Under the pieces are notes generated by a model. That model did no database searches and was not told where the DNA came from. It saw only the letters and a program-made list of their open reading frames with translations. A stretch of 32,000 nt of DNA from an archaeon (GTDB taxonomy: Archaea; Asgardarchaeota; Thorarchaeia; Thorarchaeales; Thorarchaeaceae). Position numbers and translations under genes: made by a program. Shown piece by piece: positions 1 through 19,463 of this stretch (positions are counted from its first letter, which is position 1; each line of letters begins with the position of its first letter). The stretch is from the NCBI GenBank assembly GCA_024275415.1, contig JAJRZD010000017.1, positions 30,001 to 62,000 on the forward strand, in the 5' to 3' direction.

Positions 1-1
1 C

Positions 2-2782
2 ACTACTGATGGTGATGTCCTCAACATAACAGGGGAATACAAAGGAACCTCGACTGATTATGACTATTATTACACTAATGCCGTATCAATTTCGGATGCA
101 TCGTCATATTACATAGAATACCGTGCATATAAACCAAAATTCGCGGGTGTTAATGGCCCGTATATCTGCTTCTTCTCTGCTGATGACCTATCTGGCAGTT
201 ATGGAAAGGCAGTAATGCCGATTTCTGGAAGTGAATACACTACATATAGATACATTCTATCAGATTTTGGCGTGACTGGGGAAATTGAATCGTTTTACAT
301 CACAGCCTACACAAATACGGCGGGCGAAGAATGGGAAATGAATTTCGACTACATCCGAATTTTCCAATCGAACGAATCCGGATGGGCGCACGATGGAAGC
401 ACGACAGAATCCATCGGACTGGGAGCCTATGCATCCATTTCCTCGGACGGCGATGTATTGACGTTCACAGAAACAGCGAACGCACAGGCATTTGATTTTT
501 GGATAGACTACACATCAACGAATGCTAAAATTAGCACATCTGATTATCAGTTCTTAGAATTCAAAATAGACTCTACGACGAGCGGGGACGGAGACACAAG
601 GACATACTTGCCAAGAGTCTATGAGGACACATCAACTTACGTGAACATCTTTGATTACGTCAATGACACAGGTGTTTTCAGATTCAATTTGAAAGCCGCT
701 GGTTTGTCATATGTACGAAACATCAGGTTTTATCTCGAAGATGCATCTGACTCGTTCACACTCGATTATATCAAGATCTATTCTATTGCGGGTTTCAAAG
801 TCACCGAATCATCTACAACAACAAATGATGTGATTCATGTTGACAATGGTATTTTGAAATCATCAATCGATTCTGGTTTTTTTGTCTTGAACCGAGAACC
901 ATCAACACAATTTGATTCGAGTGTGTATAATGTCGTGAATGTGACAGCATCACAATATTCATCATTAGACTATGTGAAGATTACTTACAGCGATGGTCTT
1001 TTATCTGCACCAATTTACTTCACACGTGGAACAACATTCACAGCTGGAAAAGGACCAAATACGTTAGATTTTTACTTCACCTTGAGGGACAATAGTTCAA
1101 TCTCCGCCATCGAGTTCTGGAGCGACTCAACTCCGCCAAGCGTCCAGGAGAAGTACAGTAATCCTCGGGATCCGACGACCGCTGATAATGTCACAATAGA
1201 GGTGCAATCAAATGATATTGTTGGACTCTATACCTGTACAGCAAGAATTCTTGAACAACCCGATAGTTCGTCATTGTCGGATATATCATTGGCATTAGAA
1301 TACACAGGTTCATCAGGACTGGAATTATGGAGCTATACTATTGGCAGCAATTCACTCAGTGCCGGTAGATATTTGTTCGAGATTGACGCCTTTGATGGTG
1401 CCAACCACGACTACGCATTTCTTTCATTCACTGTCACAGAAGACTATCGTTTGACACGCATCAGGATTCGATCTAATCTCATCGGCGTGGATCAGTACAT
1501 CCCCTTCGAGCAGTTCGATGTGTATCTGAATGGTTCATTGTTATTGGACAACATCTTCGAAGCAGACACGTCGAAAGCGTACAACATAACGGTGAAGGAC
1601 CGCTGGGCCAATACTCTAAACTCTACTGTGTTTGCATGGTCAGCGGACATTGTGATTGACGTTCCTGTGTATTCACTCAAAGTCGTGTCCTGGTACGAGG
1701 ACTTCGTGTACTTCAATCTTACACGTGGGGGTACCGAATATTCAGAGGTAATTACTCCACTCGACACGGTTCCGTTCCTCCTCTTCCAGGGTAATTATAC
1801 ATGGGAAACAGATTACCGGAATGGTTCTGTGATTTCCGGCTCTCTTTCACTGACACGTTCTGACGCGATAGTGATTACTGGGAATACAATCGCGGATTTA
1901 GCAAGCCTTTCGACCTCCATATTGAACATGACGACAACCATCAATGTGACCGTGACCACGACACAGAATCAAGTCATCTCGATATCTATCGACCTCACAA
2001 ACGTCAATACAACAGTACACAACCAGCTCATTCAGATTCTCCTGAACATCACGAACAGCAACTCAACGATCTATTCGCAAGGATTACAGATTCTTTCAAC
2101 GATATCGAATACGAATGCGACTTTGTACAACCAAACCGTTGCGATCATATCGATGATAACGAATGTGAATTCGACACTCTATGATGCAATCATTGATGTG
2201 TCGAACGATCTCATTTTGATCAACAGCACATTGAGTGCGCAGTACCTATCCATAAGCTCAACACTGCTCTCGATAGATTCCTCATTAGCGAGTAACTTTA
2301 CGAACATTATTGCGAATTTGACAGCAATAGGGACAAATATCACTTCAAATCATCTCATCGTTGCGTCATTGCTTGCAGTAATCCAGTCTAACATCACAAC
2401 TAATTATCTATCATTGACTGCGACACTACATGCAATTGATTCGTCAATTACCGCGGAAGTCGTGGAACTCGCCGTGATGGTCGGGAATATTCCACTGTTT
2501 CGCGGAGTAACCACTGAAGAACTCGCAGCGATGTTGGGCATCGAGCTTGTAGATATCGATGGCGACGGCGTAGTGGATGGGCCGCGTGAGAATTTGAGTG
2601 AGAAGAATAGAGCGAGCACGCAGGAGCTCGTCGATTCGATGGTAGCGTTTTCAGCACTATTCCTGATCATCATGCTACTTTCTTTCGTCGTAATTCTTTC
2701 AGTGATTCGGAGGACATTAGATTCACTAGTCCGTCGCGTAACAGATATCATTCTCAAGAAAATCGGTTTCAAGGTGAACTAA
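2..2782 (+). CDS. Large membrane-anchored glycoprotein, putative viral spike/adhesin (5' partial)
   Basis: The frame is open from position 2 (TTDGDVLNITGEY...), so ATG 215 is internal. It has beta-rich repeats of about 140 aa, an Ig-like module, nine 18-aa helical repeats, many N-x-S/T sequons, a DxDxDG motif, and a C-terminal TM helix with a basic tail. Confidence 0.8.
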   Translation, partial: TTDGDVLNITGEYKGTSTDYDYYYTNAVSISDASSYYIEYRAYKPKFAGVNGPYICFFSADDLSGSYGKAVMPISGSEYTTYRYILSDFGVTGEIESFYITAYTNTAGEEWEMNFDYIRIFQSNESGWAHDGSTTESIGLGAYASISSDGDVLTFTETANAQAFDFWIDYTSTNAKISTSDYQFLEFKIDSTTSGDGDTRTYLPRVYEDTSTYVNIFDYVNDTGVFRFNLKAAGLSYVRNIRFYLEDASDSFTLDYIKIYSIAGFKVTESSTTTNDVIHVDNGILKSSIDSGFFVLNREPSTQFDSSVYNVVNVTASQYSSLDYVKITYSDGLLSAPIYFTRGTTFTAGKGPNTLDFYFTLRDNSSISAIEFWSDSTPPSVQEKYSNPRDPTTADNVTIEVQSNDIVGLYTCTARILEQPDSSSLSDISLALEYTGSSGLELWSYTIGSNSLSAGRYLFEIDAFDGANHDYAFLSFTVTEDYRLTRIRIRSNLIGVDQYIPFEQFDVYLNGSLLLDNIFEADTSKAYNITVKDRWANTLNSTVFAWSADIVIDVPVYSLKVVSWYEDFVYFNLTRGGTEYSEVITPLDTVPFLLFQGNYTWETDYRNGSVISGSLSLTRSDAIVITGNTIADLASLSTSILNMTTTINVTVTTTQNQVISISIDLTNVNTTVHNQLIQILLNITNSNSTIYSQGLQILSTISNTNATLYNQTVAIISMITNVNSTLYDAIIDVSNDLILINSTLSAQYLSISSTLLSIDSSLASNFTNIIANLTAIGTNITSNHLIVASLLAVIQSNITTNYLSLTATLHAIDSSITAEVVELAVMVGNIPLFRGVTTEELAAMLGIELVDIDGDGVVDGPRENLSEKNRASTQELVDSMVAFSALFLIIMLLSFVVILSVIRRTLDSLVRRVTDIILKKIGFKVN
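1994..2479 (+). repeat. Nine tandem 18-aa (54-nt) protein-level repeats in the spike stalk
   Basis: LTNVNTTVHNQLIQILLN / ITNSNSTIYSQGLQILST / ISNTNATLYNQTVAIISM / ITNVNSTLYDAIIDVSND / LILINSTLSAQYLSISST / LLSIDSSLASNFTNIIAN / LTAIGTNITSNHLIVASL / LAVIQSNITTNYLSLTAT / LHAIDSSITAEVVELAVM. Confidence 0.9.
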
Positions 2783-2784
2783 CT

Positions 2785-3048
2785 ATGCCAAAGCCAGTAG
2801 GAAAAAGAATACAGGTCGCAGAAGGAGCCGCGTGGTGCGGACGCCAACTGCTAGTGATAGTGTTAACAGCAGTCGTGGTTGGCATTATCTATTTCACGAA
2901 CTTGATTGGATACCTCATAGAAATTGCCGGTGTGCCAGTACATTACGCTCTGCTGATCATCGCAGGAATGATAGTAAGTTTTGTTGGAATCGTTGTCTGG
3001 CTCATCATGTATTCTATCAAATACACGGAGCGTGTCAAACATGTCTGA
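2785..3048 (+). CDS. Small two-helix hydrophobic protein (87 aa), candidate virion membrane or capsid protein
   Basis: Starts 2 nt after the spike stop. Two hydrophobic helices with basic ends. Confidence 0.75.
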   Translation: MPKPVGKRIQVAEGAAWCGRQLLVIVLTAVVVGIIYFTNLIGYLIEIAGVPVHYALLIIAGMIVSFVGIVVWLIMYSIKYTERVKHV

Positions 3049-3601
3049 TGTGACTGCCGAGCGCGAGTTCGCTCCCGTTCAGGAGCGGGAAGAACCTGAA
3101 AGCGAAAAGAAGGCGCTCATAACTGTCTTCGGTGTGGTCATCATCGTAGTCATTGTCGGTGTGGTTGTGTGGCTATCACCATTCTTTATCCCATACTGGG
3201 AATTCATGGGCGTCGCATGGCTCTGGGGCTACATTCCAATATCTCTCTTTGTCACAGTGTTAATCATCATGGCTGTGAGAGAATCAATCTCGCATCGTAT
3301 CCACAAGAAGGCTCAAGGGCGTTTTCTTTCACTAGACATTGGCAACTCCGGAGAAGAAGAGTGGAGTGAAACATTCAGGGTGAATTGGATTGTAGAAATC
3401 GACTTCAACAAGCATGGTTACGAACAACTGACCTCTGAGCAAAGACGGGTCATTGATGAGTATGATATCGCTCTTGAGAAGATCCGACAGACCTCACAAT
3501 ACAACGACCTGAAACGTAAGTTGACCGCGAAATCGAGAGAACCCACCGAATCTCGTTGGAGAGAGATGCTTAAACTGACAAGGAGGGACACAAGTGACTG
3601 A
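3041..3601 (+). CDS. Hypothetical membrane protein (186 aa, two N-terminal TM helices)
   Basis: ATG 3041 overlaps the previous stop, so it is preferred over the track start at 2981. Two hydrophobic segments are followed by a charged domain. Confidence 0.75.
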   Translation: MSDVTAEREFAPVQEREEPESEKKALITVFGVVIIVVIVGVVVWLSPFFIPYWEFMGVAWLWGYIPISLFVTVLIIMAVRESISHRIHKKAQGRFLSLDIGNSGEEEWSETFRVNWIVEIDFNKHGYEQLTSEQRRVIDEYDIALEKIRQTSQYNDLKRKLTAKSREPTESRWREMLKLTRRDTSD

Positions 3602-4436
3602 AACCAGCACGGCTGAAACAGAGTTGCAGAAGCTAGAACAGAAATGGCACGAAACGATAAAAGATAAGGATCTTGATGCGCTCGCTTCGGAAGCACACGT
3701 AATTAAGCGTGACATCGAACGGTTCGCAAGGAAACATGAAGGGCTACACCGAGCACTGAAATCTGAGATACAGACCCTCTTGGATCATCACGGCATCATG
3801 CCTAAGACGTGGCCCGGTTTGAAGAATTTGAAAGCATACTTGGTCGGGAGTGATAAGAGTGTTCGACTCTTAGTTTGTCCGAGTTCATTCGAGGATTGTT
3901 TCCACTTCGGCGACATCGAAATTCCTATCGCTGGGTGGTTCGCTAAAGTGAGCATGGCGTTCGGGTCTGCTGCACACATAGGCCCTGTAGTCCCATTCAT
4001 TGAGGACGACCTTACATCGTATTCGGTCCCACTCCAGGTCATCATCGGTTCTCGTTGGCATCGACAACAGTTCTTCAAGGCGATGGACTATTGGATGCAC
4101 ATGGATGGTAAAGAAATCATGAATCAAATTGACCTCGTTGATGAGTTTCAGAGCGCGAAGCTAGCTGCAATTCTCCTCACGATCGGGCGACAATTCAGAA
4201 GTGTCTGGGAGGCTCTTCTAACAAATGATAGAACGATTGTTTCATTTGGTGACGAGCTCGCGGCTTCGGCTATCCGTGATTTCACGCTCGGCATTGACGC
4301 CGGTGTGCCCGAGGACGAAGAAGAGGAGATTCACTTCTGGTCTAATATCTCATGGAAGAGGGCGGCTGGGGTCGTATTGCTTGTGGCATTGATCATAATC
4401 TCCGGGATTTTTATTATTGGAGCGTTGATTACATGA
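3594..4436 (+). CDS. Hypothetical protein with C-terminal TM anchor (280 aa)
   Basis: GTG start overlaps the upstream stop. N-terminal coiled-coil-like segment and a C-terminal hydrophobic helix. Confidence 0.75.
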   Translation: MTETSTAETELQKLEQKWHETIKDKDLDALASEAHVIKRDIERFARKHEGLHRALKSEIQTLLDHHGIMPKTWPGLKNLKAYLVGSDKSVRLLVCPSSFEDCFHFGDIEIPIAGWFAKVSMAFGSAAHIGPVVPFIEDDLTSYSVPLQVIIGSRWHRQQFFKAMDYWMHMDGKEIMNQIDLVDEFQSAKLAAILLTIGRQFRSVWEALLTNDRTIVSFGDELAASAIRDFTLGIDAGVPEDEEEEIHFWSNISWKRAAGVVLLVALIIISGIFIIGALIT

Positions 4437-4921
4437 GTGATGATGAATATCTTCGAGAGCATGTCCCACAATCAGTCCTTTCAGAACAATATTACCGAGA
4501 CAAGGGTCTCCGTGCTGCTGGTATAACAGTCGAAGCAATCGTTAATGACGCATTGGAACGCGAACCCGGCATCCACGGAATATGGGTTCATCCTAATATG
4601 CAAAGACCAGCAAAGAAATTCGTGAAACATGAGCGAATGCTGAAGCTGAAACACAGATCTGCAAAAACGAATAGGCTGTCAAGAACCGCAAATGCACTGC
4701 GAGATTTGCATGTCACACTTCATGAACTCTATGACGGTTACCATCCACCCGTCAGGACGATGGTAATGGGTGCCGCACCTGGAGAGCCCGCAACGGAGGT
4801 CGTTCCAATTCGATCGGGCTCGGATGAATTCAATCTCCTGACGAGTGCTCGGGAGCGTGTTGCTCGATCAGCCGATGCCGAGTCGGTCGTGAGGGATGAT
4901 AGTGAAGACCGAGGAACTTGA
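4433..4921 (+). CDS. Hypothetical protein (162 aa)
   Basis: ATGA overlap with the previous gene fixes the start at 4433 rather than 4352. Confidence 0.65.
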   Translation: MSDDEYLREHVPQSVLSEQYYRDKGLRAAGITVEAIVNDALEREPGIHGIWVHPNMQRPAKKFVKHERMLKLKHRSAKTNRLSRTANALRDLHVTLHELYDGYHPPVRTMVMGAAPGEPATEVVPIRSGSDEFNLLTSARERVARSADAESVVRDDSEDRGT

Positions 4922-6773
4922 GCGTGCGCGATATGATGTTTTGCCAACCCCCTATCCAGTTGGTAGAGGTGCAGATGGGTATCCATGCTACATTCAACAA
5001 GTCAGGACACAGAAAGGCGTCGAAATATGGCCGGTAGTGCCATTTCATGTGCGGCGATTCCCCCCTAGACGTGGATGGTGGAAACGAACAAAGGATCCAT
5101 GGATTGACAGATTCGACCAAGCATGGGAGTTCGATCAGAAATTCTGGAAGATTGTCGATGTCTACAGGGATTCCTGGAAACGTAGAATCATCAAGAACAA
5201 GTCGCTTAGGCGAGCAATACAGATTGACGGCACATGGAGGGTCTTGCGTTCGTTCAAGCAACTCGCTACCGGCATGAGCAAGAAGCATGAGGGCGGAAAT
5301 GTAGTATTCGCAATACGCGGATGGAAACGAACCGGAAAGACATACTTGGGCAAAATCCTTGGGAAGGTCTGGACCAATGTGATGCGTGATGAATACGGGA
5401 TTGAGAGCGATATCAAGACAGTTTTCGGCGTCAATCAAGTCCGCAAGATCCACAAGAAATGCAATAGAGGTGATTTCATTCTATGCGACGAAAGCGCAAA
5501 GCTAACCTCGAGCGGTGCGATCACAGCCATCATCAATCTCGTAAACATATTGGAGATATCCGGGCTGGATCAGATAGCGGTCGGATTCATTGGCCCGAAT
5601 TTCGACTTCAAAAGCGTGGGCGGAGCGCTTGACATGGGCTTCGATGTCCTTGGAGCCAACTTTGAACATGAGATGATACGGGCCCTAGTTTATGACAAGG
5701 AGGCTGAACCTCTCTATTGTGCCGGATTTCAACGTAATTTTCTTGCATCTGAATTCCCGACTTATCATGAAGCAAAAGCTAAGAAGAGCAAGGCGATTCG
5801 CGAAGATGACGGCGCAGAAGAAATCTGGGACGAGGAGGAATTCCAACAGGATGTTGCAAGACTAGTCGAGTACGCAAAAGAGGAATATGCCCATCAGCTT
5901 CGAGCGAAGCGATTTCCGCGGATCACGAGCCTAGAAGGTGATGCAAAGGATCTTCGAATCATCGGACACAGCGATTATATGAAGCGGGTTGCCTCGAAAG
6001 CACGTGACAAGCTTGAAAATTATGTGTATTCCCTCCCGGACACAAAAGAAACACCCCCTGACATACGTGTAGAGCACATTCCTGACGGGGAGGAGGAAAG
6101 AACACACATCTTTGTCCCATACCTCATCGCTGCGACGAACGCATATGTTTCCCAACCCCGATTCCGAGCTAACAAAAGGGCTATCCGACGATTCACACGA
6201 TTCTACTTCGAGAATCTCACCTATCAAGACATCGCCGAATTAGAATCAGATGAGAATAATGATGACCCTGATTACCACCGTGTGACCGCTAACAACATCG
6301 GAAAGGCTGTCAGAGGGTTGAGAAAAAAACTCAATAACAATGATGTCGGCGCCATAGGCGAGCTTGCAGTCATGAAATTCTTGGAATCTCGCCTCCCGCA
6401 GACACTCTCTCTGGTGCGTGGGCGGCGGTGCGGGTGCCTGGAGTCGGCTGACAACGACATCGACCTTGGGGTCGGGGACGAGGAGGGGGAACGGTTCGTG
6501 GCGGTGAACGTGAAGTTGTTCTTGAGCGAGAGGGACGGGTCGGTGATCCACTGCAGCCCGGAGTTCAGGCACAGCCCACACATGTGCGTGGTGGTCGAGG
6601 TGCGGCGGAAGGAGGGGTTGCGAGTGGAGGTGCTGCTGAACGGTCCCGAGGTGGAGACCCAGGCGCAGGCCAGGGAGGAGGGCAGGGTCGTCGACCTGGA
6701 ACGGATGGTGGGACTCCTGACCTTCGGCATTGGTTCTCCGGCGGTGGGTGCGGGGGAGGAGGCTTTCACGTGA
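4896..6773 (+). CDS. P-loop ATPase fused to an HTH and a C-terminal PD-(D/E)XK nuclease-like domain (625 aa)
   Basis: Walker A GWKRTGKT (about 5319), Walker B FILCDE (about 5475), HTH-like LTYQDIAE...ANNIGKAVRGL, and nuclease-like GAIGELAVMKFL...DIDL...VAVNVK from about 6348. Confidence 0.8.
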   Translation: MIVKTEELERARYDVLPTPYPVGRGADGYPCYIQQVRTQKGVEIWPVVPFHVRRFPPRRGWWKRTKDPWIDRFDQAWEFDQKFWKIVDVYRDSWKRRIIKNKSLRRAIQIDGTWRVLRSFKQLATGMSKKHEGGNVVFAIRGWKRTGKTYLGKILGKVWTNVMRDEYGIESDIKTVFGVNQVRKIHKKCNRGDFILCDESAKLTSSGAITAIINLVNILEISGLDQIAVGFIGPNFDFKSVGGALDMGFDVLGANFEHEMIRALVYDKEAEPLYCAGFQRNFLASEFPTYHEAKAKKSKAIREDDGAEEIWDEEEFQQDVARLVEYAKEEYAHQLRAKRFPRITSLEGDAKDLRIIGHSDYMKRVASKARDKLENYVYSLPDTKETPPDIRVEHIPDGEEERTHIFVPYLIAATNAYVSQPRFRANKRAIRRFTRFYFENLTYQDIAELESDENNDDPDYHRVTANNIGKAVRGLRKKLNNNDVGAIGELAVMKFLESRLPQTLSLVRGRRCGCLESADNDIDLGVGDEEGERFVAVNVKLFLSERDGSVIHCSPEFRHSPHMCVVVEVRRKEGLRVEVLLNGPEVETQAQAREEGRVVDLERMVGLLTFGIGSPAVGAGEEAFT

Positions 6774-6939: not shown

Positions 6940-7443
6940 ATGAGCACATTGCCGGATGATAGTGGGGCCGATTGGGATAGGACTGGGGATAAAGATGTCA
7001 AAAAACAAATTCATGATTATCTATTGGCGCTCTTCGTTGCCAATAACGCAGAACCTATCAGAGGCCGGATAATGCTGATTAAGCAGGCTTTCATTCTTTT
7101 CAAAGAGATTGTTCCCGAGCTGAAATCAAAAGTCAAATTCTTCCCCTATGAATGGGGTCCTTATAGTAATGACATAGCAGCAGGCATCAATGAGATGATC
7201 ACAAAAGGGTACATAGGTGTCCGGACTGAGGGGCGGGATAAGATCTATTATCTGACTCCGCTTGGACTGAAACAGGCCAAGTCCGCCATACAATCGATTC
7301 CAAAGGACTACTTAGAGGATATTGAACGGATGAAAATGACCACTCAAGAGATGGGGTTGAGTAGGCTTCTCCGGTTCATCTATTCTAATTATCCTCAATA
7401 TGCAAAATACTCTCGGGGGCGCGAAACATATGTCACTACCTGA
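6940..7443 (+). CDS. Panacea/SocA (DUF4065)-like antitoxin-domain protein (167 aa)
   Basis: PIRGRIMLIKQAFIL...FFPYEWGPYSNDI...LLRFIYSNYP resembles the SocA/DUF4065 pattern (P-x-x-G-R-x-x-L-x-K, GP[YV]S). Confidence 0.7.
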   Translation: MSTLPDDSGADWDRTGDKDVKKQIHDYLLALFVANNAEPIRGRIMLIKQAFILFKEIVPELKSKVKFFPYEWGPYSNDIAAGINEMITKGYIGVRTEGRDKIYYLTPLGLKQAKSAIQSIPKDYLEDIERMKMTTQEMGLSRLLRFIYSNYPQYAKYSRGRETYVTT

Positions 7444-8023
7444 CCTATTATCATTTGTTTTTTTCATATTAGGGGGCGGAGGTGCTGCAATTGGCATTCA
7501 TCTCAAGCTCGCCGAGCAATGGCTGAAGGACAAGAATGACCAAGTGGACAATCTTGTTGATGCCAAGCGATTCGCATTCATGGAATCATTGAATGAATCC
7601 TGCAAGAAAAGATCCGAAATGGAAGAGGAGAACGAAGAGGAATTCCCTCTTATTGGATTTGGCAGTCTTTATGAGTCTGTGGGTGAATTGACACGACTGG
7701 CTGAAGAATTCGATGCTGTAAATGGGTGCCTTTTTCAGTTGTCTCGGATTGTGCGGGATGGGGCCAAATACTGGCTCTTCGCTGCAATTACTCTCTGCAT
7801 TGGTTCGTTTTTGGTTTATATTGATGAATTCCTGCGAACTATCTGGTCTTTTGAAATTCTGAGTATTGCATTGATTATTGCATACCCCCTCTTTGTAATC
7901 ACCTTCTTGTTCGCGATGTTTGCGGTCAGAACCCTAATTATCACGTTGAATAAACTGAATAGATTAGATGAACAAAGCGAGGAACTTCAAAGATATGAGC
8001 GACAATGGAGGAAAAGAACATGA
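7430..8023 (+). CDS. Hypothetical 3-TM membrane protein (197 aa)
   Basis: ATG 7430 overlaps the upstream gene. One N-terminal and two C-terminal hydrophobic helices flank an acidic helical loop. Confidence 0.75.
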   Translation: MSLPDLLSFVFFILGGGGAAIGIHLKLAEQWLKDKNDQVDNLVDAKRFAFMESLNESCKKRSEMEEENEEEFPLIGFGSLYESVGELTRLAEEFDAVNGCLFQLSRIVRDGAKYWLFAAITLCIGSFLVYIDEFLRTIWSFEILSIALIIAYPLFVITFLFAMFAVRTLIITLNKLNRLDEQSEELQRYERQWRKRT

Positions 8024-11488: not shown

Positions 11489-12090
11489 TGGAGTCCCAAG
11501 AAACGCACCCGGGCGCCACCACGCCAGCATCACTCCCCGAGTTGCGTGAGCACTTAGTTTTTTCCCAACCCTCCCAGATACTGTGGGTGGAGAGGAAAAG
11601 GCTCCTGAATATGCGAGAGTACGGTCTTGCGGACTACGAGAACTCGGAGATCAAGATGAAGATTCCCTTCGAAACCACTCTTCCGGTTTCAAACGAATTC
11701 ATTCGCAAAGCCATATCGTCAGTGGATGCGGTGATTTCAGAGTGGGAAAGTTCCGAGCTCAAACGCATCCAGGAGTCCAATGATGCATTCCACGAACAAA
11801 GCAAGAAGGCTCGCAGGGAGGAATCTGTCAAATACAAGTGGAAACAGATCATGGAAGGTCTGAAACCCCGTGAGGATCCCCTACCCGACAGGGTCGTGGA
11901 CTATGTGAAACGGGGTGTCGAAGCTGATGCCCAAGAGATTTGTGAAGAGTTCTCAGAAGAGTTCGGTGAAGAAGCCGTCCTGGGCGCAATAATTGGGCTC
12001 GTCACTGGTTGGAAACCACGACTCGAGGAGATTCACCCAGGACTGTTCCGACTCGTCGCGGACGACAATCTGGAGGACGAAGGCGAATGA
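11488..12090 (+). CDS. Hypothetical protein (200 aa), possible C-terminal winged helix
   Basis: TAATG coupling to the upstream gene. C-terminal RVVDYVKRG...AQEICEEF...LFRLV resembles a wHTH. Confidence 0.7.
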   Translation: MESQETHPGATTPASLPELREHLVFSQPSQILWVERKRLLNMREYGLADYENSEIKMKIPFETTLPVSNEFIRKAISSVDAVISEWESSELKRIQESNDAFHEQSKKARREESVKYKWKQIMEGLKPREDPLPDRVVDYVKRGVEADAQEICEEFSEEFGEEAVLGAIIGLVTGWKPRLEEIHPGLFRLVADDNLEDEGE

Positions 12091-13892
12091 CCGCGACAGA
12101 ACAAAGACAAGTGTCCCATGATGCCGTGAAGAACCTCTTCGAGGAGAAGCCGGATATTATCCCAGTACAATATCAAGAGTCGATCATCAAGCACCTGGTG
12201 GATGGTGTTTCAAAGACGAAGGCTGCTGAATCAGTGGGGATATCAAGGCCGAGCTGGCAACGGCATCTCGAGAAAGTCCAGAGAGCGCTTGAAACCTTTC
12301 ACGTGGAAGGCGAAAGATTGGATCCCAGACGCCAGCGCATCGAGTATATCCACCCAACTCGCATTGATGTGACCACATTCCAGCCAAGGAACATTGACGA
12401 TCCAAGCGAGGCATTCATCGAGGATATCCGTCGTCATGGTGGGAATCACCAGGCGATTACTGTGAGAGAGAAGCCCCGTCGCTATGGGTCTAAAGACTAT
12501 GACTGCATTAAGGGACACCGCCGGCTGAAAGCATTGCTTGCGATCAATGCAGGACTCTCCCCAGCCGAGCATTTGCTTGCGAAATGTATTGTCGAGCCAT
12601 TGGATGACAAACAGGCCGCCCTGGAATCGCTTACAGACAATATGTTCCACAAGGACTTGGAAACAACAGACAGAGATCTATGGATTGCGAAGCTTGTTTT
12701 AGACTATGGATGGACACCATCTCAACTAGATGAGAGATTCGAGGACCTGAGCGCTGACGCGATATCGAACATCGTACGTTCATACCGTGACGCGACAGCC
12801 ACAGTAAGGGCACTGCTAGATTCAAGAGATATCGCGGTCGGACACGTCAAGGCCATCGTATCACTGCCTCCAGAGGATCAGGATCGGATAGCAGATCGTA
12901 TCTTGAAGCGGATCAAGGACTCCGTGACCGATGGGACTTTTCCTTTCGGGGGTCCAAGCGTCAGAGAAGTTGAGTCTTGGGCACGGATGGCTCGGAACCG
13001 GAACGAGGCTGTAAAGCGTCTCGAGTCGTATTTCACCGAACTGGTCAACAAAGGTGAAACGATACTGCATGTACGAAACTCTGATGAAATAGTCCAACAG
13101 GTCTTTGGCGGTTTCAGATACAACGATTACCGAGTGCGTGACTACGATGTAGCGAATGCCGCCAAGGCCGCAGGCATCACACTCGAATATCCGCCCCTCG
13201 AAGATTCACTTAACGAACTTAGAGACAAGTACTCTCTTCAAGAGGAGGAAGGTGGAAAGAGTGGTTCTGATGGCAAGCGATTGATAGATAATGAGAGCTG
13301 GATGGAGAAAAAGGATGAGGCAGTGATTGAAGAATCACCACCTAAAGACCTATGCAATAATTGCGCGGCGTTCAGCCATGCAGAACAGATATGTGCACTG
13401 GGGCTACTAGAAGTAGGGTTGAAACCCGAAGAAGTATTTGAATGTCCTGGGTTCTTGCATTCTGATGATAGGCGACCTTTCGTTTCGCAATGCCCTATCT
13501 GCAAGCATCAAACAATGGTCATCCACGGTGAAACTCCCTATCTTAATGAAACCCCGAGTGCAATCTCTCTTACACACGATTCCCCTCATGCGGAATTCAG
13601 AATGCACACGCAATGTGTTGCACAGCATCTGATCCGAAAGAAACTCCTCAGTGGGATGTGTGAGTCGTGCAGCGGTGCATTCTGTCCATTCATCCATTCC
13701 GACAACATGGTTTCGATTGTCGGACAGATCCGGATGGACATCAAGGAATGCGGCTATCTTTCCAAGAAACAAAAGTTGTCCGAGATCAACAAGTGGGCGG
13801 ACGGTGAGTACCGTGCTGCTCAGGTCAGGAAAAGGCGAAGTCGGCCGGGAGGACGAACCCCTGAGAAACGAGGGTGGGCGGCAAAGCAATGA
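12087..13892 (+). CDS. ParB/Srx-domain protein with N-terminal HTH and C-terminal Cys/His-rich domains (601 aa)
   Basis: ATGA overlap. HTH GVSKTKAAESVGIS; ParB-N motifs FQPR, AITVR, GHRRLKAL, LTDNMFHKDL; ParB-type HTH; then CNNC, CPIC and CESCSGAFC clusters. Confidence 0.8.
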   Translation: MTATEQRQVSHDAVKNLFEEKPDIIPVQYQESIIKHLVDGVSKTKAAESVGISRPSWQRHLEKVQRALETFHVEGERLDPRRQRIEYIHPTRIDVTTFQPRNIDDPSEAFIEDIRRHGGNHQAITVREKPRRYGSKDYDCIKGHRRLKALLAINAGLSPAEHLLAKCIVEPLDDKQAALESLTDNMFHKDLETTDRDLWIAKLVLDYGWTPSQLDERFEDLSADAISNIVRSYRDATATVRALLDSRDIAVGHVKAIVSLPPEDQDRIADRILKRIKDSVTDGTFPFGGPSVREVESWARMARNRNEAVKRLESYFTELVNKGETILHVRNSDEIVQQVFGGFRYNDYRVRDYDVANAAKAAGITLEYPPLEDSLNELRDKYSLQEEEGGKSGSDGKRLIDNESWMEKKDEAVIEESPPKDLCNNCAAFSHAEQICALGLLEVGLKPEEVFECPGFLHSDDRRPFVSQCPICKHQTMVIHGETPYLNETPSAISLTHDSPHAEFRMHTQCVAQHLIRKKLLSGMCESCSGAFCPFIHSDNMVSIVGQIRMDIKECGYLSKKQKLSEINKWADGEYRAAQVRKRRSRPGGRTPEKRGWAAKQ

Positions 13893-14004: not shown

Positions 14005-15087
14005 ATGACTGATGGTACATCAACAAGTGAGTCAGTGACCGACCGACCGGACGGGTCCGGATTCATTGAGAATATGATTCAAGTCAAGGGGCGTTCAACA
14101 CTTAGAGTGCTGACCTTCTTCTATCAAAACAAAGGGACATGGACAATAAGTCAAGTCGCTCGGATGCTCCAAATGCCATACAGCACCGTCAGAAGCGCTC
14201 TACGGAGGCTTTCTCGAAATGCACTAGTCGGGAGACTCGAGAAGGGATATACTATTTTCGAGTCACGTCGTCCAGTTGTCGCAAATGTGTTATCGCATCC
14301 TGGAAAGAAGGTTTCTATCGTCACGGGCGAACCGGTCAGATGTTCTGTGGGCGCCCATGGGCGGGTGTCATGGGCGAGTGACCGGAAAGAGATGCGAGTG
14401 GAATTCTTGCCTTGGCAGCAGGTAGTGGATTGGACGAGCGGTTGGCCAGAGCACAAGCGAATAGACAGGATATCACTGAGGTCATTCATCGTGAAGCAGA
14501 TCAGGTCTGTGATTGACGGAACTCCGACACCTGTGGCTGGGTGGTTAACATACCGAGGACGACAATTCACATTGCGTGTGGCAAGGAAGAACGCGCTGAA
14601 TCTGTATGTGGGGGATCACACTTGGAAAGAGGAATTGCAGGAGTTCATCGCAAGCATTCCTAATCTCAATGAAGAGGACATGAACTCGATATGGAATGCG
14701 GTGGCGACAGCCTGCAAACATCCGAAAATCACGAGAGAATACCATGTCGTGGATCCAAGGATAGCCTCAGCGAGGCCGGAGCTTTTTCGTGGAAGTGAAC
14801 CACAACGATGGCTCTGCGCCGACCACGATGAAGTTCGTATACTCACATCCGCCGAGGAACCGGCCCGAGGTGGAGTTCTCAGGGCTGTTGAAGGCCGTGG
14901 ACAACGTGTGTCTGAACTTGAGCGCACAGTTCGCGACGGCGGCACACTACGAGCACCGGTTCATGCAATTACTCGAGGAGGCGTTACAGAAGCAGAAACG
15001 ACAGTACGAGAAGAGCTTGGAGGACTTGAAAAACGAGTACGAGCGCAAGTTTCAGGAGCTCAGGCAACAGCAGGAGGTTGCGCGTAA
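14005..15087 (+). CDS. N-terminal wHTH protein, possible replication-related protein; 0-frame product (360 aa)
   Basis: GGAGG SD. wHTH STLRVLTFF...TISQVARML...TVRSALRRL. The sequence after about 14788 looks off-frame. Confidence 0.65.
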   Translation: MTDGTSTSESVTDRPDGSGFIENMIQVKGRSTLRVLTFFYQNKGTWTISQVARMLQMPYSTVRSALRRLSRNALVGRLEKGYTIFESRRPVVANVLSHPGKKVSIVTGEPVRCSVGAHGRVSWASDRKEMRVEFLPWQQVVDWTSGWPEHKRIDRISLRSFIVKQIRSVIDGTPTPVAGWLTYRGRQFTLRVARKNALNLYVGDHTWKEELQEFIASIPNLNEEDMNSIWNAVATACKHPKITREYHVVDPRIASARPELFRGSEPQRWLCADHDEVRILTSAEEPARGGVLRAVEGRGQRVSELERTVRDGGTLRAPVHAITRGGVTEAETTVREELGGLEKRVRAQVSGAQATAGGCA

Positions 15088-15112
15088 TGGTCCGCCCGAC
15101 TACGTGGGATGA
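14783..15112 (+). CDS. +1-frame C-terminal extension of the 14005 gene, or a separate overlapping ORF from GTG 14789
   Basis: The +1 frame is open from 14765 to 15112. FVEVNHND...RPEVEFSG plus a coiled coil (QLLEEALQKQKRQYEKSLEDLKNEYERKF) looks protein-like. Confidence 0.6.
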   Translation, partial: FFVEVNHNDGSAPTTMKFVYSHPPRNRPEVEFSGLLKAVDNVCLNLSAQFATAAHYEHRFMQLLEEALQKQKRQYEKSLEDLKNEYERKFQELRQQQEVARNGPPDYVG

Positions 15113-15770
15113 AAAGCTCGAGAATCTGAGGGACATGATCGCCACGAACCGAGATGAGTTAACTGCACTGAACAGGTTCATTGCGGACCTCGGCAAGACA
15201 GATTTCCATTCTGGGACGCAGGATCTCAAGACGCGATTGGAAATCATCGAGGGCTGTATCGACATCCTACATTCTTCACATCTCGGACACACGAACACAT
15301 CTATTGCTGAGTTCAGGCAGATGCATGGGTTCGACCCTGAAGAAGAGGTTCGTTCGCGTCCTGCAATTTCAGAGGAGCAACGTATCTACAGAGATGCGCT
15401 AAGGCTGTGGGGAACAGACTCGCAAGTCGACATCTGCATCGAGGAGCTCGCTGAATGTATCCAGGCACTGGTGAAACATCGCCGCAAGGAACGAGGTTCC
15501 ACAAGGGAAGAAGTCGCGGAGGAGATAGCGGATGCGGACATCTGCCTGTCGCAGATGAAACTCCTCTTTCCAGAGTTCGAAAGGATCAGAGCAAAGAAGC
15601 TCGATATGTTGCGGCATTTTGTCATCCAGGAGAAGCAGAACGTCAATGACTGGAACTCCTGTCCCCGATGTGGCCACACGGTCACTTGGAGCCCAGATCT
15701 GACCGTGCATTGTGACTCCTGTGCATGGATGTCATCTCAATCTCACAAAGGAGGGTTGGTAAAAGAATGA
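15087..15770 (+). CDS. MazG-like NTP pyrophosphohydrolase with N-terminal coiled coil and C-terminal Zn ribbon (227 aa)
   Basis: GGAGG SD at 15073. EELAECIQAL...EEVAEEIADADIC is the MazG ExxE...EExxD motif; the C-terminus has CPRCG...HCDSC. Confidence 0.8.
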   Translation: MVRPTTWDEKLENLRDMIATNRDELTALNRFIADLGKTDFHSGTQDLKTRLEIIEGCIDILHSSHLGHTNTSIAEFRQMHGFDPEEEVRSRPAISEEQRIYRDALRLWGTDSQVDICIEELAECIQALVKHRRKERGSTREEVAEEIADADICLSQMKLLFPEFERIRAKKLDMLRHFVIQEKQNVNDWNSCPRCGHTVTWSPDLTVHCDSCAWMSSQSHKGGLVKE

Positions 15771-15931
15771 GGGTATACATTGCGGTAATCTACGGGAAAC
15801 AAGGCATAGAAGTGAACAGGTCGGATGCTTTCGACGACAAGTCCGATGCTATAGTATGGGCACGGGACGAGTGCAACGGCACCGACTGGAGGTACGAGAT
15901 ACTTTCGTACAGGGGGTTGACAAAAGAATGA
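15767..15931 (+). CDS. Hypothetical protein (54 aa)
   Basis: ATGA overlaps at both ends. Confidence 0.6.
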   Translation: MRVYIAVIYGKQGIEVNRSDAFDDKSDAIVWARDECNGTDWRYEILSYRGLTKE

Positions 15932-16155
15932 ATGTGGTGGTCAGAGTACCAGAGCCGCATTGCAGACTATGCTCACACTACAATGAATCAGGTGTTGCTC
16001 CCTATTGTCTATGGCATCATCGGGTCATCGATCGGCCATCGTCCGACCGATGCAATGACTTTGAGGACGCAATCTTTGAGGCTACGATGAGGTCACACAC
16101 AAGACGACTGGTCGATTCGACCTTTCACGTGAAAGGTAGGAGGAGAGGACGATGA
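15928..16155 (+). CDS. Small Cys-rich protein (75 aa; CxxC...C...C)
   Basis: ATGA overlaps. Sequence CRLCSHY...YCLWH...RCNDFE. Confidence 0.65.
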   Translation: MNVVVRVPEPHCRLCSHYNESGVAPYCLWHHRVIDRPSSDRCNDFEDAIFEATMRSHTRRLVDSTFHVKGRRRGR

Positions 16156-16328
16156 GCATCAGCAGGATTCCCGACCCGGACTTTGTGGAATGCAGACGAT
16201 GCAAGTTCCGACGAAAACGAAAGGATTTGCGACAGCGCAAGCCGACCTATTACGTTTGCGAGCTCCACGTAATCAGGCTACGGGGGCGCAGGGGTTGTAG
16301 TGCCGGGCAACGGAGGGTTGGGAAATGA
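16152..16328 (+). CDS. Small basic Cys-rich protein (58 aa; not in ORF track)
   Basis: Translated by hand as MSISRIPDPDFVECRRCKFRRKRKDLRQRKPTYYVCELHVIRLRGRRGCSAGQRRVGK. ATGA overlaps at both ends fill the gap exactly. Confidence 0.65.
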   Translation: MSISRIPDPDFVECRRCKFRRKRKDLRQRKPTYYVCELHVIRLRGRRGCSAGQRRVGK

Positions 16329-16648
16329 AGCGGCGGTGGAAGATACGAAATCAGTTTGCCGCTGATGCTCTAGACAATGACCTATTGTTTGACGAGTATG
16401 AACCGTTACAGGAGTTCACCAGAACGAATGTGTCAATCCACGGCGAACTGAGAACATTCTTTCACAGGCCCGAGATACAATCTCCACTGGTGAAGGATCT
16501 TGCCAAGGCCCTCTCGTACCTTGAGGAATGCTCGCATGGATGGGCTGGTGCTGACAGCACTCATGATCTGTATCAACAGCTCGAGCGGATTATGAAACGA
16601 CACGGAGTCTTCGAACGTTATAATGTCAAGAAGGAGATGAAAGAATGA
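16325..16648 (+). CDS. Hypothetical protein (107 aa)
   Basis: ATGA-coupled, with an SD. Confidence 0.65.
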   Translation: MKRRWKIRNQFAADALDNDLLFDEYEPLQEFTRTNVSIHGELRTFFHRPEIQSPLVKDLAKALSYLEECSHGWAGADSTHDLYQQLERIMKRHGVFERYNVKKEMKE

Positions 16649-16902
16649 TCGAGATACGCTTGAAACGCAAAGAGGAAAATCAGAAAGTAAAGGAAACCAA
16701 AGACGGTGTGACAGACACTTTCAAGGTCGTGCTTGTCGGCGAGGATGTGCGCAATGGCGTCGAGTGGAGCCTGACTCTAAAATATGAGGGTGAGAATCTC
16801 CCTAGTGAATATCTGAAAGAAATCGGGCACTCGTGGAACGACGAGTCCGTCCTCATGCTTCAGGCCGGCAGTCGGCAGTCGACACTGGAGGGGCCTGGAT
16901 GA
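16645..16902 (+). CDS. Hypothetical beta-rich protein (85 aa)
   Basis: ATGA-coupled, with an AGGAG SD. Confidence 0.65.
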   Translation: MIEIRLKRKEENQKVKETKDGVTDTFKVVLVGEDVRNGVEWSLTLKYEGENLPSEYLKEIGHSWNDESVLMLQAGSRQSTLEGPG

Positions 16903-17279
16903 TATCGATACCTGCACACTTGCCGGACTGCGTTTCAGATCATACACAGAGCCCGATATTTGATATCCCTGCTGGGTTCACTCCATTCGTTTTCCAGAAA
17001 AGACAGTTCTTGATACGTATCTGGAGGTTGCCGGCCGAAGATTTGAATCCTTGGGAACTACGGCGACCGGTCGCCTTCTTGGAGTTCACTGATCTGGACG
17101 AGATAGACCCATCGCCATGTGGGCTTCACTGGAGCTATTCTCAGTGGAAGAATTGCTACATCCTTCATGGGCACATCCAAGGGAGCACGAAGCACTGGTC
17201 GCTTCAAGACCTCTATAAACGATGTACTCGAGAGATTGCGTATTTCGTGAAGAAGATTGGGAGGGAACATGAAGGATGA
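16899..17279 (+). CDS. Hypothetical protein (126 aa)
   Basis: ATGA overlap fixes the start at 16899; GGAGG SD. Confidence 0.65.
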   Translation: MISIPAHLPDCVSDHTQSPIFDIPAGFTPFVFQKRQFLIRIWRLPAEDLNPWELRRPVAFLEFTDLDEIDPSPCGLHWSYSQWKNCYILHGHIQGSTKHWSLQDLYKRCTREIAYFVKKIGREHEG

Positions 17280-17611
17280 CATTTGCACGACTAAACGAGG
17301 GACTAGAAGAAAGAGTACGCGCAGAAACTATGAGATACATCACCGACAGTCTTGAGCGGTGTGGCGGTGAGTGCCTGCTCTCTGTCAGAAGGGTTTCTAA
17401 AATGATCTCGGCGCGACTAGGTCTGAAACGTAGCAAATTCGTCAACGACGTAGTCAACCAGACGTTGAAAGGACATCCGCTAGCGGTTTTCTATGGGTAT
17501 TCACACAGGCGCGGAAAGCCTAACAATCCAGTAGTCGCAATGATATATCAACTAAAGTCGCCATCTATTGAGGAACTGGCGGCTGCTGCGAATGTGGGGG
17601 TGTCGGTGTGA
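17276..17611 (+). CDS. Hypothetical protein, possibly DNA-binding (111 aa)
   Basis: ATGA-coupled, with a basic helical pattern. Confidence 0.6.
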   Translation: MTFARLNEGLEERVRAETMRYITDSLERCGGECLLSVRRVSKMISARLGLKRSKFVNDVVNQTLKGHPLAVFYGYSHRRGKPNNPVVAMIYQLKSPSIEELAAAANVGVSV

Positions 17612-17913
17612 CCGAGCTCGTCATTGCACAACTAATTCCTGAGCTTGTCGCAGATGAACGTAAGCTGTCTCGGGGCACTCTTGCTGCGCAATATCGAGAG
17701 CACATCGACAAAACAGGAATGAAACGCAGATACGGGCCATACGTAAGCCTCGTTTTGCGCGTTTCTGAAGAGAAGCAAGAATGGTTCTATCTCGGAAAGA
17801 TCGGGACTTCAAAGTATCGGGCAAAGTTGGAGCGAGTTCGGGAGATCCTCGAGATGAACTCGCATCTCTCAAATGCGGAGCTTTCGAGGGTTCTGAAGGA
17901 GGTCTGGAAATGA
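17608..17913 (+). CDS. DUF6788-like small protein (GPY...YLG motif), candidate recombination accessory factor (101 aa)
   Basis: GTGA overlap. Sequence RGTL...YGPYVSL...WFYLGK. It lies next to the integrase. Confidence 0.55.
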   Translation: MTELVIAQLIPELVADERKLSRGTLAAQYREHIDKTGMKRRYGPYVSLVLRVSEEKQEWFYLGKIGTSKYRAKLERVREILEMNSHLSNAELSRVLKEVWK

Positions 17914-18125
17914 GCGAGATAGAAGAACCACCTATGACCCGTGAGTTGTTTCGTTTGCTTTCTGCTGGAGTTTCTTTAGTATTTCAGCGTATAATTGATC
18001 AACTAAGCCCTGAAACAATTCAGATGATGCTGAAAGACCTTCAAGAGCTTGAGTCGCTGTCGCCTGCGTCTGTTCCTGAAGTGCCTCTTCAGAGAGAGGT
18101 AGGCGACACCGCGAGCATAAACTAG
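17910..18125 (+). CDS. Hypothetical protein (71 aa) overlapping the integrase 3' end in antisense
   Basis: GGAGGT SD and an ATGA overlap like the preceding eight genes. Confidence 0.45.
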   Translation: MSEIEEPPMTRELFRLLSAGVSLVFQRIIDQLSPETIQMMLKDLQELESLSPASVPEVPLQREVGDTASIN

Positions 18126-19083
18126 CGTCTGCTTCATTGATTGCGCCACAATTTGGACATTGAATCGGTTGTGGTATATTGTTATCTTTTGGCAGAATCC
18201 CTAGATATTTCAGCTCCGCTTTATGTAGGTCTTCCTGATCTAATATCGCATAGTATTGTTCAAGCACTTGGCTATCTTTCTTGTGCCCCATCCTAAGCTT
18301 GACTTCTAATGGCGAAAGCCGTCCTTCTCTTAGAAGTTGTGTTGCTCTGGAATGTCGAAAAAGATATGGAAAGAGAGAGCATTTAGGGCCATGACTCCCA
18401 CGCCCAAGTCTAACATCATGTTGAATTTGCAGTGTGTTTCGAATAGTTTTGACCGTCGGACGGCGCCCAAAGCGATTGATGAAGAGCGGAGCCTCATTGT
18501 CATCCCTCTTTGGATGCACCGCAAACCAATTCTCAAAGGTTTTGATAGCAGCCGGAATCAATAGAGTGACATTGCGCCGACCCTGTTCATTTTTCACTTT
18601 ATCAAATTTGAACTGGTAACCATAACGGGTCTGAATCACATCTCCGACGTCCAACTTCAGAACAGCGCCAGGTCTTCGTCCAGTGTCAAAGACAACCATA
18701 TAGAATGCCTTCAACCAAAGAAGCTCTGTATTTTCACAAATGTCTACGAGTTCCTCCCAGGTAATCAAGTCACTTGAGCGTATCTTTCGTTTTGGCTTAT
18801 GTCGCTTCCGACCCAAAGCTCGTTTCAGGTCCTTATCGATATCGAGCTTGTTGAACTCCATTAGTCGCGTCAGAATATACTTTCGTGCATTCAATGTTTG
18901 GACAGAAAGATGTGTCATCTTCGACAGGATATCTAGTGGCTGCGGGTTTTCAGGATCCAGAGAATATGTATTGATCATCGCATCGAGATTCTGCTCATAG
19001 TTCTGTAATGTTGAATCGGCCATCGCGACGTCGGAAACATCACGAAGATAATTTAGAAACCGCTTGCGGTCGAAAGAGGCCAT
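17932..19083 (-). CDS. int: Tyrosine recombinase/integrase with C-terminal Zn ribbon (about 383 aa)
   Basis: DTGRRPGAV (catalytic R), YLFRHSRAT (HxxR), MGH, EQYY (catalytic Tyr region) and CPNCG...CSRC. Start 19083 is preferred because a TATA box lies 26 nt upstream. Confidence 0.95.
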   Translation of the reverse strand: MASFDRKRFLNYLRDVSDVAMADSTLQNYEQNLDAMINTYSLDPENPQPLDILSKMTHLSVQTLNARKYILTRLMEFNKLDIDKDLKRALGRKRHKPKRKIRSSDLITWEELVDICENTELLWLKAFYMVVFDTGRRPGAVLKLDVGDVIQTRYGYQFKFDKVKNEQGRRNVTLLIPAAIKTFENWFAVHPKRDDNEAPLFINRFGRRPTVKTIRNTLQIQHDVRLGRGSHGPKCSLFPYLFRHSRATQLLREGRLSPLEVKLRMGHKKDSQVLEQYYAILDQEDLHKAELKYLGILPKDNNIPQPIQCPNCGAINEADASLCSRCRLPLSEEALQEQTQATATQALEGLSASSELFQGLVDQLYAEILKKLQQKANETTHGS

Positions 19084-19108
19084 GTTTGGGACATTCGAGT
19101 TGCCCTCA

Positions 19109-19115
19109 TATATAA
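19109..19115 (-). promoter_or_regulatory. Archaeal TATA box for a leaderless integrase transcript
   Basis: TTATATA on the minus strand, 26 nt before ATG 19083. Confidence 0.55.
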
Positions 19116-19463
19116 TTATGGAGTTATTTGCCCTCATGAAGAGCCCTTCTTTTCGTAACATGCCCTCATTACACAAACTCCCCCCCTCCTACCACGATAG
19201 CCTTGTTATCTCCGACCACACCTTTTCTATGTCCGCATTTTGAGGATTAGAAACAGTCGACGCTAATGTATCTCGACTCCATCAATAGCAATTACTTTGC
19301 ATTACAGAGGCCTAGCGAAAAAACAAATACGAATTCGTAAATCTTATTTTTCAATTTTCCAATATTAGTGCGGTCTGAAGAAGAGAAAAACCCGATACCA
19401 GCGTTGTGCTTCTTGAAGCTGGTGTCTTCTCATTTAGGAATCATCTACGCTTGAGGTGATTAC

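Follow-up and report, generated by a model that had tools for sequence, protein, structure and literature searches.

An integrated mobile element of a new Asgard-wide family carries a membrane-protein operon and a predicted ATPase-nuclease in a Thorarchaeota genome

An integrase and a perfect 50-bp repeat delimit an integrated element

The window analysed here is a stretch of 32,000 nt (G000:C119:30001-62000, where G000 is the source genome), which lies on a 107-kb contig of a 3.5-Mb genome in 127 contigs. Its left part, together with the region of the same contig immediately to the left (L001, whose coordinates are used for the left part of the element), contains an integrated mobile element with an operon of membrane-anchored proteins, an ATPase gene and a tyrosine integrase gene. 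An exact repeat search of the left region against the integrase surroundings returned a perfect 50-bp direct repeat, with one attachment site (attL) at L001:14513-14562 and its right copy (attR) at window positions 19157-19206 (+); the runner-up repeat was only 11 bp. The element is therefore 24,694 bp long and its left end lies 5,487 bp before the window. An earlier interpretation made without database searches (the sequence-only reading) had set the start at the first base of the window, which is corrected here, and had proposed a leftward extension of the contig to find attL, where it was located. That the locus holds an integrated mobile element, and that its family is a new one spread across Asgard archaea, is close to certain.

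The integrase gene (17932-19161, -), read from the ATG at 19161, codes for a protein of 409 aa whose C-terminus forms a zinc ribbon (DUF7577/zinc ribbon). The full open reading frame (ORF; 17932-19176, -) matched PF00589 with an E value of 1.9e-11 and 44.5 bits against a cut-off of 27.1, and the R...HxxR...H...Y signature is recognisable by eye. The gene adjoins attR and shares with the repeat just its ATG and two more bases, the first 5 bases of attR, so that it stays whole on integration. The PF00589 match and the exact att repeats thus bear out the proposal of an integrated mobile element with an intact-type tyrosine integrase. Read on the minus strand, the att core also provides the start codon of the integrase and, with it, a strong ribosome-binding stretch of the GGAGG type; copies of the host RNA gene that serves as the target (see below) thus hold a Shine-Dalgarno sequence and an ATG in antisense, and the integrated integrase keeps its own translation signals with new DNA upstream. 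The integrase and its att pair could serve as a genetic tool in Asgard archaea.

Ordinary host genes flank the element on both sides: radical SAM, GNAT and a 464-aa protein with multiple transmembrane (TM) helices on the left, and EamA, a Big_7 surface protein and PAS histidine kinases on the right. The top database match of a flank gene was a Candidatus Thorarchaeota metagenome-assembled genome (72% identity). This agrees with the Asgard host that had been proposed, as a partial check only because the gene is widely transferred.

The integration target is a conserved small RNA gene

The element is integrated in the gene of a structured RNA of about 100 nt, and the 50-bp repeat is the invariant core of this gene. 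The repeat sequence is 88-100% identical in 84 of the 86 genomes of the host's family, whereas the adjacent protein gene reaches merely 64-73%. Syntenic copies of the target gene are uninterrupted in 19 related genomes; at these empty sites the core continues directly into the ~20 nt found after attR in G000. The 3' closing strand of the host gene (19207-19229, +) is accordingly contiguous with the core in the 19 relatives, and its helices covary. Across the 19 syntenic copies the RNA unit consists of a closing helix, GUGGUCAG...CUGGCCAC, and a second helix of variable sequence. RNAalifold predicted 14 pairs, with compensatory changes in 9 of them, and G-U pairs place the RNA on the plus strand. 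The RNA matched no Rfam family at either gathering or E-value thresholds, and ARAGORN found no tRNA in the window or the upstream region. Two further copies with the same loop and different helices are present in the host genome (G000:C127:8406-8453 and G000:C45:15771-15803), and copies at the element itself occupy L001:14448-14580 and window 19157-19229. Across Thorarchaeota the family shows covarying variable helices around a near-invariant C-rich loop of ~50 nt, UUUUCGUAACAUGCCCUCAUUACAUAACUCCCCCCCUCCUACCAC, with one to several copies per genome. The integration target has thereby exposed a conserved Thorarchaeota small RNA family without an Rfam model.

Just inside attL the element carries a 3' closing strand of its own, which pairs over 11 bp with the neighbouring 5' half. 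The element therefore supplies a replacement 3' end and restores a complete RNA gene at attL. A second 5' half, now an orphan, is found at L001:14345-14378, 70 nt to the left of the used one, and pairs with the host 3' strand at attR, and a 31-nt insertion (aaaaacgcgg...gatgcgg) separates the used 5' half from the core (L001:14345-14512 region). The orphan half and the insertion may be traces of an earlier integration at the same site.

A conserved operon encodes membrane-anchored proteins and a large glycoprotein

The conserved backbone of the element is an 11-gene operon of membrane-anchored proteins, a CPBP protease, a glycoprotein and small TM proteins, with the ATPase at its end. The part left of the window (all +) includes genes for a 352-aa protein that combines a basic tail and a TM helix with a Thr-rich linker; a 237-aa protein with predicted TM helices at the N- and C-terminus; a 241-aa CPBP/Rce1-like protease (PF02517, E 1.2e-9); a 131-aa protein with the sequence HELGH; and a backbone gene (L001:17473-18801) that encodes 441 aa in a circular relative and has an in-frame TAG in this copy.

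The most prominent product is a spike-like glycoprotein of 1182 aa, whose gene starts at L001:19234, 766 bp left of the window, and has its 3' 926 codons at window 1-2782 (+). Its sequence shows a signal-like helix at the N-terminus, one TM helix at the C-terminus (residues 1137-1155) and 29 sequons of the type N-x-S/T. Homologues of 1149-1822 aa occupy the same position in the related elements of genomes G315 and G016 and in loci L016, L018 and L019, and its N-terminal sequence ADGD.S.QSIT.FSETLPDD recurs in L018 and L019. The spike had no match in Pfam, PHROGs or phage tblastn.

Downstream of the spike gene, an 87-aa protein with two hydrophobic helices and a basic N-terminus (2785-3048, +) has an 81-aa counterpart at the same place in the circular contig Ga0374083 and is a candidate small virion membrane protein. 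It is followed by a protein of ~186 aa with two predicted TM helices (3041-3601, +; a 186-aa counterpart in Ga0374083) and by a tail-anchored protein of 280 aa with a single predicted C-terminal TM helix at residues 261-279 (3594-4436, +), which has homologues in L016 (31% identity, E 6e-28), G315 and L018. The last gene before the ATPase encodes a soluble protein of ~162-189 aa (4352-4921, +) and overlaps the ATPase start with its 3' end; its homologues of 132-158 aa stand immediately before the ATPase in L016, L018, L019 and G315. Starts and stops of neighbouring genes overlap within the spike-to-ATPase block. The coupled operon of a spike with a C-terminal TM helix, small membrane proteins and a P-loop ATPase that had been noticed earlier is thus confirmed.

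At least five proteins of the operon are membrane-anchored, and in five proteins the N-terminus is a basic stretch (MPKQKK, MPKPVGKR, PKKKSRSRKSKR and similar) that leads into a TM helix. By the positive-inside rule, these basic N-terminal tails would face the cytoplasm or the interior of a particle. For the 352-aa and 280-aa proteins, a search of the ESM Atlas produced nothing usable.

The ATPase belongs to the B251/Zot class and has a predicted nuclease domain

The ATPase gene (4896-6773, +) encodes 625 aa with the Walker A motif GWKRTGKT and the Walker B motif FILCDES. The protein was modelled with AlphaFold2 (AF2) from 79 sequences, which gave a pLDDT of 80 overall and above 90 over residues 70-510; an earlier model from 7 sequences (pLDDT 59) was discarded. 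The model predicts a RecA/Zot-like P-loop core (residues ~105-285), a helical/helix-turn-helix (HTH) region (~300-483) and a C-terminal PD-(D/E)xK fold (~483-612). The sequence-only reading had recognised the P-loop ATPase and had missed this nuclease fold.

By Foldseek, the best-covered solved match was the Zot N-domain (TM-score 0.48). Viral structure matches (Foldseek, BFVD, VIA) were Zot-like, plasmavirus L2 and ATV ATPases, and the predicted-structure clusters nearest to the protein are nearly all viral. We also built a profile from the B251 proteins of SSV1, SSV2 and ASV1 together with His1 ORF16. The ATPase core aligned to it by hhalign with 96.1% probability (E 3.1e-9, 156 columns), and 12 arbitrary Walker-A proteins used as a control scored at most 72%. 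The ATPase has no TM helix and by sequence is not FtsK/HerA-like. It is the sole link of the element to known viruses, and the ATPase-HTH-nuclease fusion is a candidate for a novel kind of genome-processing motor. Stand-alone short ORFs that resemble its PD-(D/E)xK-like domain at 48-65% identity occur in this and other Thorarchaeota genomes (L004, at G000:C4:11-304, L005, L007, L008 and L011), often near contig ends.

Relatives are patchily distributed and include circular contigs

As a single-sequence query the ATPase retrieved 5 proteins among 5.8 billion and was found in 7 of 400 Asgard genomes. A profile search recovered 369 cluster representatives, mostly of 500-650 aa, and matched 33 of the 400 Asgard genomes, 13 of them strongly and across seven families. 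The family is thus present in at least seven Asgard families, and none of the six genomes of the host's own genus matched the profile or contains the backbone. This patchy distribution and the absence from the same genus indicate that the backbone genes are mobile and not core. The possibility that they were syntenic core genes of related hosts, raised together with the sequence-only reading, is answered in the negative. At all loci inspected the ATPase stands in the same context: anchored proteins, a CPBP-like protein, a glycoprotein of 944-1822 aa, small TM proteins, a C-terminally anchored protein of ~300 aa, a soluble protein of ~133 aa that overlaps the ATPase start, and the ATPase.

Two relatives without an integrase retain the backbone and occur as circles of 18 and 23 kb. 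The JGI contig Ga0374083_1120618 (22,989 bp) has a 141-bp exact terminal repeat (a 22.8-kb circle), carries all its genes on one strand, lacks the integrase and the cargo slot and has 12 genes in common with the element. The NCBI contig JBQSKB010000160 (18,223 bp) has a 115-bp terminal repeat (an 18.1-kb circle). We take both to be circular genomes on account of these repeats. A 30-nt terminal inverted repeat in Logan contig SRR12623520_136166 was dismissed as a likely k-1 assembly artefact, and pattern scans of genome and metagenome contigs with a close ATPase alignment yielded nothing. The complete circular genomes and the exact integration sites make the family searchable in viromes and enrichment cultures.

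Integrated relatives are also present in other hosts. In G315, of another genus, the relative carries an integrase of its own, and a D5-like primase-helicase substitutes for the ParB-like gene. In the closed genome G016, of another family, a 30.3-kb copy lies between repeats of ~63 bp. The repeats of this distant relative are at L014:1-63 and L015:10330-10392 (G016:C1:1-63 and 30330-30392), and the deposited G016 sequence begins exactly at the left repeat. Members of the family therefore swap replication modules, ParB-like against D5-like primase-helicase, and retain the membrane operon and the ATPase.

These data also bear on whether the locus could be a decayed genomic island, or a host surface-protein locus that is mobile in appearance only. 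The in-frame TAG within one conserved gene would suit such an origin. Perfect 50-bp repeats, an intact integrase, closely related contigs that are circular and same-genus genomes without the element all argue against it, and we regard it as highly improbable.

Cargo, regulatory and replication genes

Between the ATPase and the replication genes lies a cargo slot (6940-11160). It begins with a cassette of three genes for proteins of 167, 207 and 426 aa (6940-9285, +) without counterpart in Ga0374083. The 167-aa protein matched PADLOC PDC-M19A (E 3.6e-11) and phrog_24871 and is DarG-like (DarG C-terminal region, SocA/Panacea-like), the 207-aa gene product is a TM protein, and a sequence search of the PDB with the 426-aa protein gave no match. 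The circular relative lacks the cassette, which is therefore probably a passenger with a defence or toxin-antitoxin role. Two predicted membrane proteins of 199 and 152 aa (9576-10726, -) are also cargo and have no counterpart in the relatives.

A divergent gene pair (10876-11488; phrog_11046, transcriptional regulator, E 3.4e-8) encodes a 94-aa winged HTH (wHTH) regulator (10876-11160, -) and a 77-aa protein (11255-11488, +). The pair is conserved at 60% and 51% identity in the G315 element, and the 77-aa gene is also found in Ga0374083, in keeping with the divergent regulator switch that had been noticed earlier. Further right, a 627-aa ParB-like protein with a Cys-rich C-terminus (12009-13892, +) matched phrog_1033 (E 2e-11), with ParB_N and HTH_ParB slightly under the Pfam cut-offs, and has homologues in Ga0374083 (31% identity, E 1e-67) and G016. 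From these matches it is likely to be a replication or partition protein. Next to it are a 360-aa wHTH protein and a 230-aa protein with a C-terminal zinc ribbon (14005-15770, +; weak HTH_IclR, TrmB and MarR matches), and then an array of about nine small ORFs of 58-148 aa without a Pfam match (15725-18125, +), one of which (101 aa, 17608-17913) has a 39%-identical counterpart in Ga0374083.

Evidence for a membrane-coated virus and for a plasmid

We searched the ORFs of the element, including those in the 5.5 kb upstream of the window, for hallmarks of viruses and of conjugation. At the level of sequence, none matched the capsid, portal, terminase, tail or type IV secretion system (T4SS) families of Pfam and PHROGs, nor HK97 or double-jelly-roll capsids or VirB4. 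The sequence-only reading had listed HK97 capsid, portal, terminase and tail genes as missing, which is confirmed, and had named upstream capsid or T4SS genes as evidence against it; the upstream region holds membrane proteins and the CPBP protease instead. No relaxase, pilin or pilus gene, or VirB4/TraG-type (FtsK/HerA) ATPase was found above any threshold.

With moderate confidence we interpret the locus as a small circular double-stranded DNA element in its integrated state and, most probably, as a virus that is temperate, non-lytic and coated by a membrane, with no icosahedral capsid. This reading is based on the gene layout, the membrane topology and the class of the ATPase, and is favoured further by the viral fold neighbourhood of the ATPase, the SSV-like colinearity, the anchored glycoproteins, the swapping of replication modules and the lack of recognised conjugation genes.

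The tyrosine integrase recombined the 50-bp core of the element with that of the host RNA gene, which gave attL and attR. In such a virus, a host-derived membrane would be decorated by the anchored glycoproteins, among them the 1182-aa spike with a long helical stalk that is glycosylated, and the small proteins with two TM helices and the inward basic N-terminal tails could hold the DNA. As the particle buds or is extruded, the ATPase of the B251/Zot class may use its HTH and PD-(D/E)xK domains at the membrane to recognise the genome and to cut or load it. Replication or partition of the episome would fall to the ParB-like and wHTH proteins, and the divergent regulator pair would set the integrated or the active state.

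Several results weigh against a virus. No homologue of a virion protein was found, with no structural family of PHROGs or Pfam matched, and tblastn against 50,697 phage and archaeal virus records (INPHARED) gave no match for the ATPase, the spike or the 87-aa protein; IMG/VR searches were likewise negative. Comparison with a profile of the SSV/His1 capsid protein (6 sequences) by hhalign gave 0.4% for the 87-aa protein and 7.9% for the 186-aa protein, these profiles being small enough to miss a very distant relation. The element and its relatives had no match longer than 16 nt among the ~87 CRISPR spacers in the four arrays of this genome. This copy may also be defective: the in-frame TAG at L001:17473-18801 is a real lesion unless it stems from an error in the assembly. 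Finally, a published circle of similar gene content, the 20.8-kb Atabeyarchaeia circle, was classed as a plasmid, possibly with a conjugative or secretion system, and the element named Guacar was left unclassified in the same study (Valentin-Alvarado et al. 2024, Genome Res, PMC11529989).

That classification, the lack of a capsid or known virion protein and the ParB-like partition protein, typical of plasmids, would all fit an integrative plasmid, or a conjugative or vesicle-borne element, in which the operon forms a surface adhesion or DNA-transfer structure or loads vesicles and the ATPase-nuclease nicks and pumps DNA. However, none of the VirB4/TraG-type ATPases, relaxases or pilin families expected of conjugation was detected, the ATPase is closer to the fusellovirus/His1 B251 profile than the 12 control P-loop proteins are, its nearest predicted-structure clusters are nearly all viral and the layout is colinear with that of SSV1. 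We consider a plasmid a serious possibility, though a somewhat doubtful one and less likely than a virus.

Comparison with known systems

Pleolipoviridae are capsid-less and have a block of a spike with a C-terminal anchor, membrane proteins and an NTPase; the temperate pleolipovirus SNJ2 has an intact-type integrase. The element resembles HRPV-1 and SNJ2 in its block of spike, membrane proteins and NTPase, in variable replication modules and, for SNJ2, in the type of integrase. In contrast, it exceeds these viruses 1.5-3 times in genome size, encodes far more anchored proteins and has a much larger ATPase, with a nuclease domain. Sequence comparison by PHROGs, Pfam and tblastn (the 50,697 records above) identified no homologue of the VP3-like membrane protein, the VP4-like spike or the VP8-like NTPase, so that the pleolipovirus link suggested at first is not borne out by homology.

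The likeness to spindle-shaped viruses extends further. The ATPase core falls in the class of B251, His1 ORF16 and pI-like ATPases of Fuselloviridae, Halspiviridae and wyrdviruses, and like the published B251 and wyrdvirus ATPases it has no TM domain. In SSV1 the gene order is end-filament adhesin, B78, C166, VP1, VP3, VP2, A82, C84, B277, A154 and B251, with the integrase in the opposite orientation. In wyrdviruses it is capsid protein, adhesin, three genes, a B277-like protein, one gene and a pI-like ATPase; the swapping of replication modules is known for wyrdviruses and pleolipoviruses (Medvedeva et al., bioRxiv 10.1101/2021.07.29.453957). The element has the spike, the 87-aa and 186-aa proteins with two TM helices each, the 280-aa C-terminally anchored protein, the soluble protein of ~160 aa and the ATPase, parallel to both in order, size and topology (adhesin, small TM proteins, C-terminally anchored protein of ~280 aa, soluble protein of ~150 aa, ATPase). 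B277 has one TM helix near the C-terminus and A154 has none, so that topology and size match those of the 280-aa and the soluble protein. The small circular genome, interchangeable replication modules and temperate lifestyle are further points in common.

The element could belong, in strongly diverged form, to one of the known families of enveloped or spindle-shaped viruses (Pleolipoviridae, Fuselloviridae/Halspiviridae or wyrdviruses). In favour of this are its ATPase of the B251/pI class, as published for wyrdviruses, the adhesin followed by four or five genes and then the ATPase, and the proteins of 81-87 aa with two TM helices directly after the adhesin. However, no VP1/VP3/VP21-type capsid protein, B277 or A154 homologue is detectable, and none of the structural families of pleolipoviruses or fuselloviruses in PHROGs was matched. 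The profiles of the capsid protein, B277 and A154 reach a probability of 0.2-0.5% (B277 and A154 by hhalign, 0.2% each, despite the same order, size and topology), whereas for wyrdvirus capsid proteins an HHsearch probability of 99% has been published. The ATPases of the element family (540-650 aa) are 2-2.5 times longer than B251, with added HTH and PD-(D/E)xK domains, and the upstream four anchored proteins and two protease-like genes, the CPBP protease among them, have no counterpart in these viruses. The listed adhesin of wyrdviruses is of the 6-bladed propeller type, which that of the element is not. In SSV1 the att site lies inside int and the gene is split on integration, whereas here it lies at the 5' edge of a gene that stays unsplit, and the target is a small RNA other than a tRNA. 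Membership in a known family is therefore improbable. In view of the absent profile similarity for the capsid protein, B277 and A154 we do not file the element in the spindle-shaped families; of the proposed likeness to spindle-shaped viruses, the B251 class of the ATPase holds and an SSV/His1-type capsid protein was not detected by profile comparison. The element may work like a spindle-shaped or pleomorphic virus and is not assigned to those families.

The pT26-2 plasmid family and TKV-type elements of Thermococcales and Methanococcales are ~20 kb in size, integrated or episomal, and of unsettled status between virus and plasmid. They share with the element a core of membrane or secreted proteins and an ATPase with no capsid gene, and differ in their euryarchaeal hosts and, so far as is known, in the types of ATPase.

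Among Asgard elements, the Atabeyarchaeia circle encodes seven TM proteins and, besides a CAAX-like protease and a ParB-like NTPase, both a primase-helicase and an integrase, and Guacar (MGE-9917, 26.3 kb) has 14 TM proteins, two of them >1200 aa; related ParB-like genes occur in Thorarchaeia drafts (PMC11529989). Compared by description only, the two resemble the element in being small and circular and in their numerous TM proteins, to which they add a CAAX-like protease, a ParB-like protein and a tyrosine recombinase. Their primase-helicase can be likened, again by description, to that of the G315 relative, and Guacar has all its genes on one strand as in Ga0374083. Unlike the element, neither is mentioned as having an ATPase-nuclease (PMC11529989).

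The cultured Lokiarchaeum virus FylV1 (16 kb) was considered as a relative and rejected, being an unrelated double-jelly-roll virus. The literature held no published description of the present family that we could find, and several CRISPR-targeted Asgard elements are still unassigned there. In the literature consulted, the Asgard viruses on record are of the tailed, double-jelly-roll, spindle-shaped or filamentous kinds, with no pleomorphic or enveloped one among them. We put forward, tentatively and as a rather unlikely outcome in its full form, a new high-rank group of temperate Asgard viruses with a membrane virion, four or five anchored glycoproteins including a spike of 1200-1800 aa whose long glycosylated helical stalk could serve in attachment or fusion, an ATPase-HTH-PD-(D/E)xK protein of the B251/Zot class as a terminase analogue assembled from unrelated parts, and integration into genes of a conserved, undescribed small RNA family instead of tRNA genes. 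If these elements are enveloped viruses, they would show for the first time how membrane virions and large surface glycoproteins work in the lineage ancestral to eukaryotes.

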